Assembly: GCA_019695265.1 (NCBI GenBank)
Contig: JAIBAJ010000004.1
Span: 402-64,401 of the forward strand
Direction of reading: 5' to 3'
Source: Bacteroidia bacterium
Lineage (GTDB): Bacteria > Bacteroidota > Bacteroidia > JAIBAJ01
Length of the DNA stretch: 64,000 nt
This document shows positions 9,809-63,903 of the stretch, piece by piece; position 1 is the first letter of the stretch; every line of letters begins with the position of its first letter. The notes under the pieces were generated by a model. The model was not told the DNA's origin and did no database searches. It worked only from the letters and a program-made list of their open reading frames with translations. A program made the position numbers and the translations under genes.

Positions 9809-9859
9809 GGGTTTAACACAGGTTTTAAGAGAAATTTCAGTCTCTTTTATATTATTTAT

Positions 9860-10013
9860 GCGGGCCGCTTTCGCCATCGGAGTGATTATTAGACTCAAAC
9901 AGTTTCAATAGGCGAAATCGCCGGGCTATCCACTTCAAGTCCTCGTCGCCGAAGGCCCCGAAAGTGTTCGGGACCTTCGGCTCCTGTGGGCTTTCCGTTA
10001 CTATCCCTGCCCG
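9860..10013 (+). repeat. GC-rich structured intergenic element, copy I-1 (type I)
   Basis: Conserved blocks GCGGGCC...GGGCTATCC...TCCTCGTCGCC...CTCCTGTGGGC...CTATCCCTGCCCG. Lies 3' of the S8 gene on the same strand. The core may extend about 15 nt further 3'. Confidence 0.9.
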
Positions 10014-10147
10014 AAGGGCCTGTGCATCCTAGAAGCTTGGTACCTAATCTAAATCAGTCAACTCCTTGTATTTACAAAATTGGTTTTTAAGGCTATGGTA
10101 AACTTCGATTAGTTTACAATCCAAGGACTTTAATTGGAAGTAACTGC

Positions 10148-11088: not shown

Positions 11089-11332
11089 TAACAAGTTCGT
11101 TTTGGGATTAACATGGTTTCTTTAAGTGTCTCTAAAGAACCATTTTTCATTTTCATAATTTGGAAAGTATTATAGCCAAACACATTGGGAAAATTGGTCA
11201 TTGCAAAGTTGTAGGAAGTGGCAGAAATAAAAGATGTTCCAGGTAGGAATGATGTAAATTGCAGGGTAGTATTCGATTTGGAAGTTGAAATACGGAAGGT
11301 GGATTGTAGCACATCACTTGGGACGGAGCACC

Positions 11333-11479
11333 CGGGCAACGATAGAGCGTGATACCCCACAGGACTGTGCAGCGGTAGCGGAGCAGGCCGAGGAGTATTA
11401 GCGATAGCGTGACCCGAACGCACCTTATCAATAGTTGGGGGTAAGCAACTAGCTTTGGAGGTGCGGAAGGGGGCCCGCC
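11333..11479 (-). repeat. GC-rich structured intergenic element, copy II-1 (type II)
   Basis: The plus strand reads CGGGCAACGATAGAGCG...CCCCACAGGAC...CCGAGGAGTA...GCGATAGCGTGACCCGAACGC...GGGGGCCCGCC, the reverse complement of the element consensus. Lies 3' of fumC on the same (minus) strand. Confidence 0.9.
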
Positions 11480-11556
11480 AACTTTAGAAAAATAGGAATA
11501 AAAAAGCCGGATTTATTCTTAGTTAAACCCGGCTTTGGAAGGAAAATGGTCTCCTA

Positions 11557-14607: not shown

Positions 14608-14615
14608 TACCTTTG
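14608..14615 (+). promoter_or_regulatory. -7 box (TACCTTTG) for SRP RNA
   Basis: Exact TAnnTTTG ending 5 nt before the predicted RNA 5' end. A TTTG at 14585-14588 sits at about -33. Confidence 0.65.
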
Positions 14616-14619
14616 CGCC

Positions 14620-14716
14620 GGGCAAGTCTTATACGACCAGCTCCTGGTGAACTCCCCCAGGTCAGGAATGAAGCAAGGGTATCCGGTTGTAGCGGTGCGA
14701 TGTAAGTAGCTTGCCC
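14620..14716 (+). ncRNA. ffs: Small (4.5S-type) signal recognition particle RNA
   Basis: Conserved domain IV sequence CCAGGTCAGGAATGAAGCAAGGG (compare CAGGUCnGGAAnGnAGCAG). The terminal helix GGGCAAG/CTTGCCC closes the molecule. A T-run follows at 14717-14722. Confidence 0.85.
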
Positions 14717-14720
14717 TTTT

Positions 14721-22642: not shown

Positions 22643-22723
22643 TGGTGGATAGGGGTTAAACCCCATAGGTTCTGCTGGAAAGTCAATTATATCGAATCAA
22701 TTATTTTTTAAAATACGAGTTAT

Positions 22724-22864
22724 GCGGGCCCCCTCCGCCCAACACTTGGTTGGCTAAACCCCAAGCAACTTGTCAGGGCGTTCGGGTCACGCTATCGGCT
22801 GTAGTCCAAGCCACTCCGCTAAACGCTGCGTTGGCTTGGAGCTACTTGCCTCTATCGTTGCCCG
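22724..22864 (+). repeat. GC-rich structured intergenic element, copy II-2 (type II)
   Basis: GCGGGCCCCCTCCGCCC...GGGCGTTCGGGTCACGCTATCGGCTGTAGTCC...GGAGCTACTTGCCTCTATCGTTGCCCG. Lies 3' of the VCBS gene on the same strand, between convergent genes. Confidence 0.9.
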
Positions 22865-22946
22865 AGGCGCAACCTCTAAGTTTAAATGCTAAGCTAACTT
22901 GTAACGGTATCTATGAGCTTCCTGCAAAGGGAATCATTTTCAAACC

Positions 22947-33549: not shown

Positions 33550-33916
33550 AAAACAAACCGTCCTAACTAAAATTGTTCTTATTGCAATGGTTACCAGTAT
33601 TGTTCAATTGGTTTTGCCTTGGTGGAGTATTGCCATTGCTGCTTTTGGAGTTGAACAAATAGGTAAAAACCGTCCTGCTTATTCATTTTATGCCGGTTTT
33701 TATGGTATTTCCCTGGTTTGGATTCCTTATATGTTTTACATCGATCATAAAAATTCTCACATCTTAAGTCAACGAATTTGTAAATTGTTCTCCTTACCGG
33801 AATATCCAATTTTGCTCATGCTGGTGGCCGCCTTGTTGGGTGGTGGAATTGCCGGTTTGGCAGCCTTGTCGGGCAATTATTTCAAATCATTCTTTACCAA
33901 AAATGAAGTGGCTTGA
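33542..33916 (+). CDS. Small integral membrane protein, unknown function
   Basis: The start MTEKQTVL overlaps the upstream stop. There are three to four hydrophobic segments. Confidence 0.45.
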   Translation: MTEKQTVLTKIVLIAMVTSIVQLVLPWWSIAIAAFGVEQIGKNRPAYSFYAGFYGISLVWIPYMFYIDHKNSHILSQRICKLFSLPEYPILLMLVAALLGGGIAGLAALSGNYFKSFFTKNEVA

Positions 33917-34310
33917 GAGAGGCCTTGATTCGGAGTTCCATTTCCAAACTGCTCGTTCAGGAGGCAAAGGCGGTCAGCATGTTAACAAGGTAGAAACCAA
34001 GGTGGAGTTGTATTTCCACATCCAAAATTCACAACTTTTGGATGATACGGAAAAAACTATTTTGCTTCATAAACTTCAGAATAAGCTTAATCAGGAGGGG
34101 TTTGTCATTCTATCTTCCCAAAAATCGCGGAGTCAGCTGGCCAATAAAGAAGATGCGGTAAAGAAGTTTTTTGCCCTGCTGGAGAAGGCTTTTCAGAAGC
34201 CTAAGTTGCGTAAACCTACCCGGGTTCCGGCAGCAGTGGTTGCTAAACGGCTCGAAACTAAGAAGCATCGCAGCGAGGTAAAGAAAAATCGTCGACTTCC
34301 GGATTCTTAG
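33903..34310 (+). CDS. arfB: Alternative ribosome-rescue factor / peptidyl-tRNA hydrolase ArfB
   Basis: RSGGKGGQHVNKVETKVEL contains the GGQ motif. The tail is basic (KPKLRKPTRVP...KKHRSEVKKNRR). About 135 aa. Confidence 0.8.
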   Translation: MKWLERGLDSEFHFQTARSGGKGGQHVNKVETKVELYFHIQNSQLLDDTEKTILLHKLQNKLNQEGFVILSSQKSRSQLANKEDAVKKFFALLEKAFQKPKLRKPTRVPAAVVAKRLETKKHRSEVKKNRRLPDS

Positions 34311-34366
34311 TTGGATTTTTTAAACCAGATTCAGCAGCATCTTGTTGAGTGTGGTCAAGTTTATTT

Positions 34367-34517
34367 GGCGGGTCCCCGGCAACCCTCCCCGGCTTTTTTA
34401 TTTTATTTCGAACGGATATTAACCGGGTTGCCGCGTCGGGCTATTCGTTCCTAGTCCTCGTCCCCCTAGGCTAACGCCGTCGGGGTCCTGTGGGCTATCC
34501 ACTGCTATCCCTACCCG
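34367..34517 (+). repeat. GC-rich structured intergenic element, copy I-2 (type I), left member of a head-to-head pair
   Basis: GGCGGGTCC-CGGCAACCC...GGGTTGCCG...GGGCTATTCG...TCCTCGTCCCC...GTCCTGTGGGCTATCC...CTATCCCTACCCG. Lies 3' of arfB on the same strand. Confidence 0.9.
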
Positions 34518-34605
34518 GAAGTGTCGTGCAAACCCTGACTTTCGGCCTTTTAATTGTATGTTACCTGCAATTATTCAGGAAATGCATAACTGTTTGGGTT
34601 TGGGT

Positions 34606-34746
34606 CGGGCAACGATAGAGCCAAATAACCCACAGGATACCGCAGCCTTAGCGGAGGTAGCCGAGGATTATGGGCGATAGCGTGACCTTTTCGCATGCAC
34701 AATGTCTGTTGGTTGAGATAAATTTTATAGCGAAAAGGGGCCCGCA
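34606..34746 (-). repeat. GC-rich structured intergenic element, copy II-3 (type II), right member of a head-to-head pair
   Basis: The plus strand reads CGGGCAACGATAGAGCC...CCCACAGGATACCGCAGCCTTAGCGGAGG...GGGCGATAGCGTGACCTTTTCGC...GCGAAAAGGGGCCCGCA. Confidence 0.9.
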
Positions 34747-34981
34747 TAAAAATTATCCTAGAAGCTAACTACCTACAAAGAATGATTTTGTTCATGAAAG
34801 CAAATCCAAAAAAGACGCTTACAGGTTTGAAAACCCTTGTCGGAACTAAACCATTGCAACTGAAAATAGTCGAAACACCATAAATTGGACAAGATGATTA
34901 AAGTCAGGATTGGTTGATATGTAACAATTGTAACCTTAATTTTGGTGGAGTAGACTCACTTTTGCTGAAAAATTATTTCAA

Positions 34982-45567: not shown

Positions 45568-45621
45568 TTCCTAAAGAATTTGCATATTTAGGTAGTACTA
45601 AATGCAGTTTTTGATGATGAT

Positions 45622-45757
45622 GCGGGTGCCTTCGCATTCACCTATTGCCTCTTTCTAAAATGTAGTAAGGCTCAGGCCCGGGCTATCGCTGTTACTCCTC
45701 GGTCCACTACGCTAAGGCTGCGTGGCCCTGTGGGGTAACTTGCTCTATCCCTACCCG
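45622..45757 (+). repeat. GC-rich structured intergenic element, copy I-3 (type I), left member of a head-to-head pair
   Basis: GCGGGTGCCTT...AAGGCTCAGGCCCGGGCTATCGCTGTTACTCCTCGGTCC...CGCTAAGGCTGCG...CCCTGTGGGGTAACTTGCTCTATCCCTACCCG. Lies 3' of the STAS gene on the same strand. Confidence 0.9.
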
Positions 45758-45861
45758 GACCCAAGCCCGAACTTTTGGGAAATGGATATACAATTTTGCT
45801 CATCCAGGGTGTTGGTGTGTTGATTACCCGGTCATTGCTGCAACTGTTTGGTTTTGCAGCC

Positions 45862-46005
45862 CGGGCAACGATAGAGGCGAGTAGCTCCCGGCAGAAATGG
45901 CTTCAGTGCGTTGGCAGCCGGGACTACAGACGATAGCGTGACCCGAAGCCCATTCCCAAAACTTATATATTTAAATAAATTTCAGTTGGGCGAAGGGGGC
46001 CCGCC
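45862..46005 (-). repeat. GC-rich structured intergenic element, copy II-4 (type II), right member of a head-to-head pair
   Basis: The plus strand reads CGGGCAACGATAGAGGCGAGTAGCTCCCGGC...GCCGGGACTACAGACGATAGCGTGACCCGAAGCCC...GGGCGAAGGGGGCCCGCC. Lies 3' of the minus-strand gene 46258..46677. Confidence 0.9.
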
Positions 46006-46203
46006 AAAAAACAAATGGAATAATTGGAAAGTTATACCGAATGTACATTATGTTTAGTCCAATTTTAGGTATTAATTTTTATTGAGAAAATTGGCCTAAC
46101 ATTCTGTATACTCGGCATTTACCAATCTAAATTTATAAAAGCCTTCGGACTATTTATAAATTAAAATTGGTATTAAATTTCTGTATTCCGGACCAACCGG
46201 TTC

Positions 46204-60269: not shown

Positions 60270-60354
60270 GATTTTAAGTATGTAGGTATTTTTTAACGAC
60301 TGCCTTGGTAAAAAGGTTCGATTGGAAATGTGAAGGTAGATTGGGCTTGCACCC

Positions 60355-60508
60355 CGGGCAACGATAGAGCCAAGTAGCCCACAGGAGCCCGGCGCCCGAA
60401 TTTATTCGGGGCGGTGGGCGACGAGGACTACAGGCGATAGCGTGACCTGAACGCCTTGCACCAGGTTTAGGTAAAGATCAAAAGCCGCTTGGCGTGAAGG
60501 GGCCCGCC
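60355..60508 (-). repeat. GC-rich structured intergenic element, copy II-5 (type II)
   Basis: The plus strand reads CGGGCAACGATAGAGCCAAGTAGCCCACAGGAGCCC...GGGCGACGAGGACTACAGGCGATAGCGTGACCTGAACGCC...GGCGTGAAGGGGCCCGCC. Lies upstream of, and co-oriented with, the minus-strand OmpA gene. Confidence 0.9.
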
Positions 60509-60572
60509 AAATAAAACAACTCCCACCAACATTGGCAATAAATAACCACCTTTGTCGCAGAATTTTAAACAC

Positions 60573-63424: not shown

Positions 63425-63525
63425 AGATACTATTCGAAGTTTATTTTTATATCCGTGGAATGGATTCCGTAGTCAATTGATTCGCAAATAGTTGCCAAGT
63501 CGGTTGTTAAAAAAATGTATTATTG

Positions 63526-63660
63526 GGCGGGCCCATCGCAGAAGTGGAGTGTTTCAAAAGAGCAGAAGCAAGGCGAATGGCCGGGCTATCGCCTGTACTC
63601 CTCGTCGCCCTTGGCTAGCGCCGCGGGCTCCTGTGGGGTACCTGGCTCTATCCCTGCCCG
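63526..63660 (+). repeat. GC-rich structured intergenic element, copy I-4 (type I)
   Basis: GGCGGGCCCATCGC...GCGAATGGCCGGGCTATCGCCTGTACTCCTCGTCGCCC...GGGCTCCTGTGGGGTACCTGGCTCTATCCCTGCCCG. I counted 87 G+C in 135 nt. Lies upstream of, and co-oriented with, the gene starting at 63904. Confidence 0.9.
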
Positions 63661-63903
63661 ACGCTACTACAGTCATTTGGGGTTAATTTAGTTGGGCAAG
63701 AAGCCAGAATGAAGGTTTAGCAGGTTGAAGTGCAAGAAAAGAGAAAAGCAGGAGTTATGAACAGGAATAACTAGTTTTTTGGCTTGTATTTTGGCAAAAA
63801 TGCCCTTTATCTGTAAAAATAGTTAAGCCTGGTTTGGGAGCTGGAATACATTGATTGGAAATTATTTCCTTTGTTGACATTATAGTTTTATATATTATTT
63901 TTT

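Follow-up and report, generated by a model that had tools for sequence, protein, structure and literature searches.

A structured repeat of about 160 nt, probably a Bacteroidia counterpart of the repetitive extragenic palindromic (REP) sequences and bacterial interspersed mosaic elements (BIMEs) of E. coli, is scattered in hundreds of copies through the genome of an uncultured member of the Bacteroidia from activated sludge or wastewater. Two of these copies occupy positions 34367-34746 of the 64,000-nt stretch of DNA analysed here (hereafter the window, C158:402-64401 of the 3.83-Mb, 213-contig draft assembly G000), where a first-pass annotation had proposed a single palindromic mobile unit. 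We find that these positions hold two independent copies of different subfamilies, called types I and II, which lie tail to tail and do not form one mobile unit.

A profile search of the whole assembly recovered 506 copies, typically 140-178 nt long and together making up ~2% of the genome. Lengths span 47-178 nt when short copies, most of which are at contig ends, are included. None is longer than 178 nt, and no long autonomous or coding parent was found in this survey of all copies in the assembly. Placement is intergenic, with just 16 of the 506 overlapping a called open reading frame (ORF) by more than 40 nt. Within the window, the core motif CTATCNNTRCCCG (one mismatch at most) is matched nine times where 0.19 matches are expected, and a covariance model built from the element's own copies recovers the same nine full-length copies at 108-144 bits. 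One copy comprises a T-rich leader of ~20 nt, a core of ~145 nt and a tail of ~15 nt. Flank logos show that the 20 nt on the 5′ side of GCGGG are rich in T and end differently in the two types (..TTTG for type I, ..TTAT for type II; leader consensus drawn from 155 copies of type I and 137 young copies of type IIa), whereas the tail after CCCG, (A/G)GGTGCAAACCCAAA, is common to them.

The doublet at 34367-34746 sits between an arfB-like gene and a rhodanese/metallo-beta-lactamase gene, and its parts are as follows.

34360..34366, plus strand: 5′ leader of the type I copy, rich in T (TTTATTT followed by G), from the flank logos and the leader consensus
34367..34517, plus strand: core of the type I copy (covariance model match 34365-34534, 121 bits)
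34518..34535, plus strand: 3′ tail of the type I copy, GAAGTGTCGTGCAAACCC, from the 3′ flank logo
34536..34589, no strand: unique centre of the spacer, outside both copies, from BLAST of doublet spacers
34590..34605, minus strand: 3′ tail of the type II copy, ACCCAAACCCAAACAG, from the flank logo and spacer comparison
34606..34746, minus strand: core of the type II copy (covariance model match 34592-34748, 143.7 bits)
34747..34755, minus strand: T-rich 5′ leader of the type II copy, AATTTTTAT, from the flank logos

Much of what the first-pass annotation described in this stretch is borne out. Both arms are where it placed them, by sequence and by the covariance model (121 and 144 bits). The 88-nt spacer does have inverted ends, CAAACCC...GGGTTTG, which are the 3′ tails of the two copies, and the reported flanks TTTATTT and TAAAAAT prove to be their leaders. 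What does not hold is the idea that these parts make up a repeated unit of roughly 380 bp. Pairs of copies less than 400 nt apart number 66 in the genome and 63 of them are convergent, but the spacers of these 63 doublets, 42-375 nt long, have nothing in common except the tails. An all-against-all BLAST of the 62 spacers that were recovered revealed no common centre, the tails being the sole similarity. Moreover, 374 of the 506 copies (74%) are singletons, the two arms of a pair resemble each other slightly less than random copies of their types do, and arrays of more than two copies were not seen for this element in G000. Doublets are therefore juxtapositions rather than copied units. When single-stranded, the 396-nt stretch may fold with one arm on the other (-64.9 kcal/mol, z = -2.8), yet it is an imperfect palindrome merely in the trivial sense in which any two inverted copies are.

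Covariation establishes a predicted fold for each copy, on its own forward strand, in the form of a three-way junction. Its three helices, namely P1 (GCGGG/CCCG(C)), a short P2 with a hypervariable AT-rich loop, and a long P3, are all recovered by mutual information over the 506 copies. RNAalifold identifies compensatory changes in 21 of 35 pairs among 11 copies, while its application to 200 copies aligned by hidden Markov model was too strict to use owing to register shifts. In a cross-genus alignment of 12 copies, drawn from the sister species described below and ten other genomes of the class and itself fitted to the model, 93% of cells pair compared with 38-45% when the partners are slid. 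Both sides change in 26 of these 35 pairs, and none of 500 shuffles matches the observed pairing values. The CTATC/CTATC “internal loops” of P3 are invariant, being identical at four positions in 503 of 503 copies. These motifs partly pair with each other, since column 78 covaries with column 139 (A-T in 352 copies, T-A in 69).

In the type I copy (34367-34517), the two strands of P1 are GCGGG at 34368-34372 and CCCG at 34514-34517, and the P2 arm carries a variable AT-rich loop. P3 begins with the pairs G34438-C34511 and G34439-C34510 and reads GGG-CTAT(T)C ... CTATC-CC-T, with the invariant motifs CTAT(T)C at 34441-34446 and CTATC at 34505-34509. The type II copy (34606-34746), read on the minus strand, has GCGGG at 34745-34741 and CCCG at 34609-34606. 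Its P3 begins with A34683-T34612 and C34682-G34613 and reads ACG-CTATC ... CTATC-GT-T, the CTATC motifs being at 34680-34676 and 34618-34614.

The folding strand is likely the forward strand as used here, although this is not fully settled. The pair U89-G127 is found in 493 of 496 copies, and GC, GU and AU alternate across genera at several pairs. Counts of G-U against A-C within G000 are mixed on the choice of strand, whereas the cross-genus alternation favours the forward one. Two observations point the other way. Minimum free energy is lower for the reverse strand in 349 of 438 copies, a comparison that is confounded by richness in G and U, and the C-U mismatches that are frequent on the forward strand become G-A pairs on the reverse strand.

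The double substitution that separates types I and II had been read as paired changes in one helix, and this reading is confirmed: they are compensatory changes in a real helix, at the first two base pairs of P3. Type is thus best defined by the identity of these two pairs, beside the CUAUC/CUAUC motif (profile positions 73/74 and 143/144), and sequence comparison within the genus reveals at least four states that preserve pairing. Watson-Crick pairing holds for 73-144 in 489 of 492 copies and for 74-143 in 493 of 493. The division into two subtypes serves well for G000, where 300 copies are AC..GT (type II) and 176 are GG..CC (type I), leaving 476 of 506 cleanly assigned. It does not exhaust the family. 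Among the other 30 copies, mostly truncated, are eight AG/CT, five GC/GC and two GC/GT, every one of which still pairs. The first two of these states are major ones in a congeneric sister species, G002 (complete genome OZ260106.1; all counts cover 2.9 Mb, ~65% of it), which has 138 GG/CC, 108 AG/CT, 42 AC/GT and 31 GC/GC copies, so that AG/CT and GC/GC, rare in G000, account for ~40% of its total. Copies from other genera are mostly GG/CC. GG/CC is thus the class-wide form and AC/GT mainly a G000-specific expansion of near-identical copies, and the type states mark subfamilies that expanded separately in each species. Because whole subfamilies inherit their states, the “concerted changes” at the two pairs correspond to some three events in evolution and not to hundreds of independent ones. 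Some 25 further positions separate types I and II, less sharply, and type II is the more uniform (mean identity 0.85 versus 0.72 for type I).

Types also differ in what is attached to them. About 36 type IIa copies carry an extra 5′ module of ~60 nt, ..TAGGGTAnnCnGAAAAAGTCAAnnAGGAGGAAACGACnATTTTTTAAATACTTnnTAT, ahead of GCGGG, and one such module at 22660-22723 (plus strand) precedes the window copy at 22721-22880. In G002 (for example at 969985-970151, 2183234-2183419 and 3293100-3293254), copies of the GG/CC type are followed by purine-rich tails resembling microsatellites, and AG/CT and GC/GC copies have a common 3′ module of ~60 nt, CTCCGTGCCCGGTTTTnGGTGAAGTAC...GTATTTCATGCCCGGG. The subfamilies of G002 therefore differ in their appended modules too. 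No such distinction extends to the strand. The reported bias is present in the window, where all four type I copies are on the plus strand and four of the five type II copies on the minus strand, but it is absent from the genome as a whole (type I, 97 plus and 79 minus; type II, 143 plus and 157 minus). Neither type nor strand is associated with GC skew in G000, and G002 has 180 plus and 167 minus copies. A replication-strand bias of the types was rejected on these two grounds.

The geometry of the doublets invites comparison with REPINs, the paired REPs of Pseudomonas fluorescens, in which the spacer is copied as part of the unit and singlets are decayed remnants (PMC3116915, PMC3337134). Both consist of two facing inverted repeats, are non-autonomous and expand within a genome. 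In contrast, the spacers of our element are unique, its singlets are an intact majority and the two arms come from different subfamilies. The first-pass annotation had likened the stretch to a REPIN or to a miniature inverted-repeat transposable element (MITE), and had suggested a search for a REP-associated tyrosine transposase (RAYT) or another enzyme of the IS200/IS605 type. Unique spacer centres, arms less alike than random copies and 374 singletons all speak against a palindromic mobile unit.

A version of that idea in which the I/II doublet is moved by a RAYT-like Y1 transposase of G000 is in our view largely refuted and very improbable. Inverted doublets without target-site duplication would suit it, and G000 does have two single-copy Y1 (IS200-like) genes. 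At the Y1 gene on contig C60, the REP array has a type II copy immediately next to it, and the sequence GTAG is present in P3 of type IIa copies. Nevertheless, spacers are unrelated and 74% of copies are singletons; the C60 gene has private hairpin repeats of its own, 4 on one side and 7 on the other; and the second G000 Y1 gene, like the Y1 genes of G002 and of genome G001, has no copy of the element within 1.5 kb. The number of Y1 genes does not track the abundance of the element, G001 having 7 Y1 matches and few copies, and both G000 proteins score well below the NCBIfam cut-off for RAYTs (30 versus 80 bits). GTAG falls within a covarying helix (columns 85-88 with 128-131) and is not a 5′ tag. 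At the C60 locus (C60:10986-12400; L014, 880-2400), which is outside the window, the Y1 gene stands between inverted arrays of 4 and 7 units, each unit being a 48-60-nt repeat with the hairpin GACCCC-N3-GGGGTC, and the 11 hairpins occur nowhere else in G000. It looks like a REPtron-like locus whose REPs never spread.

Other classes of mobile element fared no better as candidates. No target-site duplication was seen by the first-pass annotation, and this extends to the whole genome, where none exceeds chance at any boundary offset (at most 8% for 3-mers). Inverted termini are limited to the 5-bp P1 helix, with no further terminal inverted repeat. A MITE of a DDE transposon was therefore rejected, there being no duplication, no inversion beyond P1 and no autonomous relative. 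An IS200/IS605-type element was set aside given the lack of replication-strand bias and of a linked TnpA, yet folded ends and the absence of duplication are compatible with it. Furthermore, no gene is flanked by the element in both G000 and G002.

Inversion was considered as well. A recombinase might flip the unique segment between convergent copies, as in the invertible promoters of Bacteroidales, and the arrangement fits, with inverted arms of 160 nt around 40-300 nt of unique DNA and invariant CTATC motifs as possible core sites. We consider such a switch extremely unlikely. Contigs from four metagenome runs, which break at repeats, yielded neither an inverted form nor an empty-site allele, and one metagenome contig that spans the spacer in the orientation of the window, together with one ~96% strain variant, keeps the doublet arrangement. 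Most copies are singletons, the arms are only ~63% identical and no recombinase gene is linked to them.

Relatives do differ in their insertions, as comparison with G002 shows. We compared 1067 orthologous intergenic regions, defined as those between adjacent reciprocal-best gene pairs (median amino-acid identity 80%). Of these, 48 are occupied in G000 alone, 39 in G002 alone and 20 in both. About 70% of the occupied regions differ between these two congeners, a rapid turnover of sites. G002 intergenic DNA is too diverged for empty-site alignment, and exact insertion boundaries were accordingly not set. Five of the nine window copies, including all four of type I, have no G002 counterpart. In the doublet at 34367-34746, the region in G002 holds a copy in the same orientation as 34606-34746, but of type AG/CT. 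The other copies in the window are the following.

9857..10030, plus strand: type I copy (covariance model, region comparison); the orthologous intergenic region of G002 is 62 nt long and empty
11316..11481, minus strand: type II copy; an AG/CT copy stands at the matching G002 site, with the common arm signature CGCTAATACTCC...GGGGTATCACG
22721..22880, plus strand: type II copy, the only one on this strand; missing from the matching G002 site
45619..46007, both strands: second doublet of the window, type I (plus) at 45619-45772 and type II (minus) at 45846-46007, with 104 nt between the CCCG ends; the counterpart region in G002 holds solely a minus-oriented AG/CT copy
60339..60510, minus strand: type II copy; a GG/CC copy stands at the matching G002 site
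63524..63677, plus strand: type I copy; missing from the matching G002 site

For 94% of G000 copies the nearest relative is in the same genome, and the median nearest-neighbour identity of type II copies is 0.98. Together these values indicate that each species has had its own expansions. A G000 type II copy often corresponds to an AG/CT copy in G002 (6 of 11 shared sites). Treating positional orthologs as true orthologs was mostly unsupported by sequence similarity.

Although the doublets are not copied units, their composition is not random in G000. The proposal that inverted pairs combine types I and II is upheld by 43 mixed pairs among the 55 typed convergent pairs, compared with an expectation of 46.6% (p=1.7e-6). 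At short spacing II/II pairs are depleted, with one among 23 typed pairs whose spacer is below 130 nt. The first-pass annotation had named intermediate types and random combinations as findings that would count against its scheme. Further types do exist, and combinations in G002 are close to random (see below), with no partner code visible among its four types.

An excess of mixed pairs might reflect targeting rather than loss. An active subfamily, type I, would then insert preferentially, in inverted orientation, alongside a resident copy that belongs to a different type. An excess of pairs that include type I is found in G000 (46 of 55 versus 60% expected, p=1.7e-4) and in G002 (36 of 44 versus 68%, p=0.03), and membership of a pair is commoner for type I (56 of 176 copies) than for type II (66 of 300, p=0.02). 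Seven doublets have a single copy in the corresponding region of the other species, and in six of them the arm confined to one lineage is of type I; shared sites hold 3 of 30 type I copies compared with 11 of 43 type II copies. We nonetheless regard this explanation as unlikely. Copies at shared sites are mostly not similar by descent, which leaves “resident” and “newcomer” infirm labels; the copy at 45846-46007, for example, is just 50% identical to its positional partner in G002. Spacers of 42-375 nt indicate no fixed target beside a resident. The 66 two-copy regions are near the Poisson expectation of ~50 for 506 copies in roughly 2600 regions, and type I is the more heterogeneous and apparently older type (0.72 versus 0.85 mean identity).

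Copies have a preferred position relative to genes. A co-oriented gene precedes 70% of them, its stop codon lying a median of 50 nt upstream. The 5′ side is always the one nearer a gene border, the median distance being 50 nt where that border is a stop codon and 150 nt where it is a start codon, while on the 3′ side the next gene is 270-320 nt away and this roomier space often contains other repeat families. Occupancy is ~38% for convergent intergenic regions and roughly 7% for co-directional ones, in which single copies are sense in 77 cases and antisense in 44. If the leader stands beside a gene, two copies in one intergenic region must converge. Neighbouring copies avoid direct orientation, which occurs in 4 of 141 G000 neighbour pairs within 4 kb and in 57 of 275 pairs beyond 400 nt (p=2e-23). 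G002 displays the same pattern, with 6 direct pairs of 59 between 0.4 and 4 kb, and of 26 genes that stand between two copies, 25 have these copies in inverted orientation. As a side observation, direct neighbours are under-represented out to 16 kb in G000 and in the 2.9 Mb of G002. A terminator-like site lies upstream of 15% of copies, four to five times the control rate; terminators were rejected as the insertion target given that just this fraction has one. An association with a particular gene was likewise discarded. A copy is found upstream of the rhodanese/metallo-beta-lactamase gene in one distant genome, but at none of 79 other Bacteroidota loci that contain this gene.

These positions are also what might be expected of a functional RNA module in 3′ untranslated regions, selected for its fold as an insulator (a 3′-end protector or a terminator-like roadblock), with doublets as bidirectional insulators and subtypes as neutral markers. 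REPs and enterobacterial repetitive intergenic consensus (ERIC) sequences have been credited with such roles. Placement a median of 50 nt past the stop codon of a co-oriented gene, the high occupancy of convergent regions, and G-U pairs on the forward strand with cross-genus covariation are all in keeping with this explanation. Element-like contigs were also found in one wastewater metatranscriptome at a depth similar to that of neighbouring genes, which is weak evidence since the data are unstranded and may include DNA. Still, the orientation relative to genes is merely biased (77 sense versus 44 antisense), a canonical terminator is already present just upstream of 15% of copies, no U-tract follows the fold, and there is no conserved link to a gene, as the 79 rhodanese-gene loci without a copy illustrate. 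In Flavobacterium psychrophilum, matches to Flavo-1, an RNA motif to which we relate the element below, are sense, antisense or outside transcripts (PMC9723704). On balance such a function seems improbable as the explanation of the family.

Our preferred reading, which we think probable, is that the element is a REP/BIME-like structured repeat family of Bacteroidia, two independent copies of which form the doublet. The element would spread as a folded single strand by means of an enzyme acting in trans, as REPs do. If its 5′ leader always adjoins a gene border, two copies in one intergenic region would end up convergent. Recombination between direct repeats would delete direct neighbours, and the instability of near-perfect palindromes would remove inverted neighbours that are close and nearly identical. 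Mixed-type pairs, whose arms are ~63% identical, would survive this purging and leave a BIME-like pattern comparable to that of y with z1 or z2 in E. coli.

Several points weigh against this reading. Purging by recombination and palindrome instability is something we infer, and it does not explain the absence of divergent pairs within 1 kb. The rule that the leader stands beside a gene describes these missing pairs but brings no mechanism of its own. The excess of mixed pairs is marginal in G002 (35 of 44 versus 67% expected, p=0.05). The two copies at a shared site usually show no greater similarity than random copies do (median rank 0.57), each resembling the subfamily of its own genome, so gene conversion or repeated insertion at hot spots could produce part of the apparent turnover and of the types. 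No transposase, nuclease or binding protein was tied to the element, so that the sole grounds for its mobility are turnover, near-identical copies and copy number. Finally, the genes were called crudely from ORFs, G000 is a draft in 213 contigs, and the part of G002 covered is 65%.

In behaviour, the known system nearest to the element is the REP/BIME system of E. coli. REP types y, z1 and z2 combine there as y-z1 or y-z2, in inverse orientation and with variable linkers (PMC8266576). The element likewise exists as hundreds of intergenic copies of several subtypes concentrated at the 3′ ends of genes, pairs different subtypes inversely with variable linkers and makes no target-site duplication. 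REPs are thought to be recognized as a folded single strand, a further likeness. Unlike the REP, a hairpin of 20-50 nt, the element is four to five times longer and forms a predicted three-way junction. It also lacks the 5′ tetranucleotide tag (GTAG or CGTC) and arrays of more than two copies, and, in contrast to a REPtron, no cognate RAYT gene is flanked by it. Its host phylum is Bacteroidota.

In size and palindromy the element is similar to two other groups of repeats. ERIC sequences (also called IRU) of enterobacteria and Correia (NEMIS) elements of Neisseria are imperfectly palindromic intergenic repeats of 100-160 nt. Related species differ widely in how many they carry, transcription together with neighbouring genes is common, and selection on their folds has been proposed. 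Correia elements are bounded by terminal inverted repeats and a duplicated TA, whereas ERICs are single long hairpins, and to our knowledge neither has a three-way junction or a subtype marker of two base pairs. The element is set apart from both by these descriptions, not by sequence comparison.

The element also appears to be related to the Flavo-1 RNA motif (Rfam RF01705), whose function is unknown (Weinberg et al. 2010, PMC2864571). Its model matches the type I arm alone, on the opposite strand, at 26.4 bits (gathering threshold 42; E=0.002), and the window has no Flavo-1 match at the Rfam gathering level. Both belong to Bacteroidota, and the model aligns over its full length (positions 1-76) with P3 and the two near-symmetric conserved loops of that arm, although on the strand opposite to the inferred folding strand. 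The element adds P1, P2, the T-rich leader and the tail, and differs further in being ~500-fold amplified and divided into subfamilies. It can be described, from this alignment, as a putative long, amplified relative of Flavo-1 that falls below the threshold of that family. The Flavobacterium psychrophilum matches, which take any orientation to transcripts, fit a dispersed repeat better than a small RNA gene.

A bolder extension of this relationship can be imagined. Flavo-1 would be the recognition arm of a Bacteroidia-wide, RAYT-independent element whose folded single strand is acted on by an enzyme yet to be discovered, and the two P3 pairs would serve as a four-state specificity code that sets both amplification and the choice of neighbours. 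We consider this doubtful. If true, one code would give rise to the BIME-like mixed doublets and to a genome-wide ban on direct neighbours.

Other features of the window were recorded. The gene directly 5′ of the doublet (33840-34310, plus strand) encodes an ArfB-like protein of 156 amino acids with an RF-1 domain and a basic tail; ArfB is a peptidyl-tRNA hydrolase of ribosome rescue. Positions 34560-34600, in the spacer of the doublet, contain ...GGAAATGCATAA..., which resembles a third short repeat (..TTATGCATTTCTTATGCGTAATCTGGGTTTA..) that adjoins elements in both species, including the G002 locus L011 at about 1640-1700. A second repeat family, rich in AT, is represented at 46033-46164 (minus strand) and in at least 80 other places in G000 by units of 88/131 nt ending in ...CATTCGGTAT. 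It is often tandem and clusters 3′ of the 160-nt elements, sometimes within them. A small signal recognition particle RNA of the Bacteroidales type (Rfam RF04183, 104 bits) is located at 14613-14720 (plus strand).

What is understood of REP/BIME-type repeats and their enzymes comes almost entirely from Proteobacteria, and the element would provide a counterpart in the Bacteroidia. Its distinctive features are a larger, three-armed predicted fold, subfamilies marked by compensatory changes at one position of a helix, mixed pairing and the lack of a linked tyrosine transposase. Flavo-1, an orphan for 16 years, could now be read as belonging to a dispersed repeat and not as a gene for a small RNA. 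At ~2% of the genome these repeats break assemblies at hundreds of places, and a model of the family would aid the annotation and binning of metagenome-assembled genomes.

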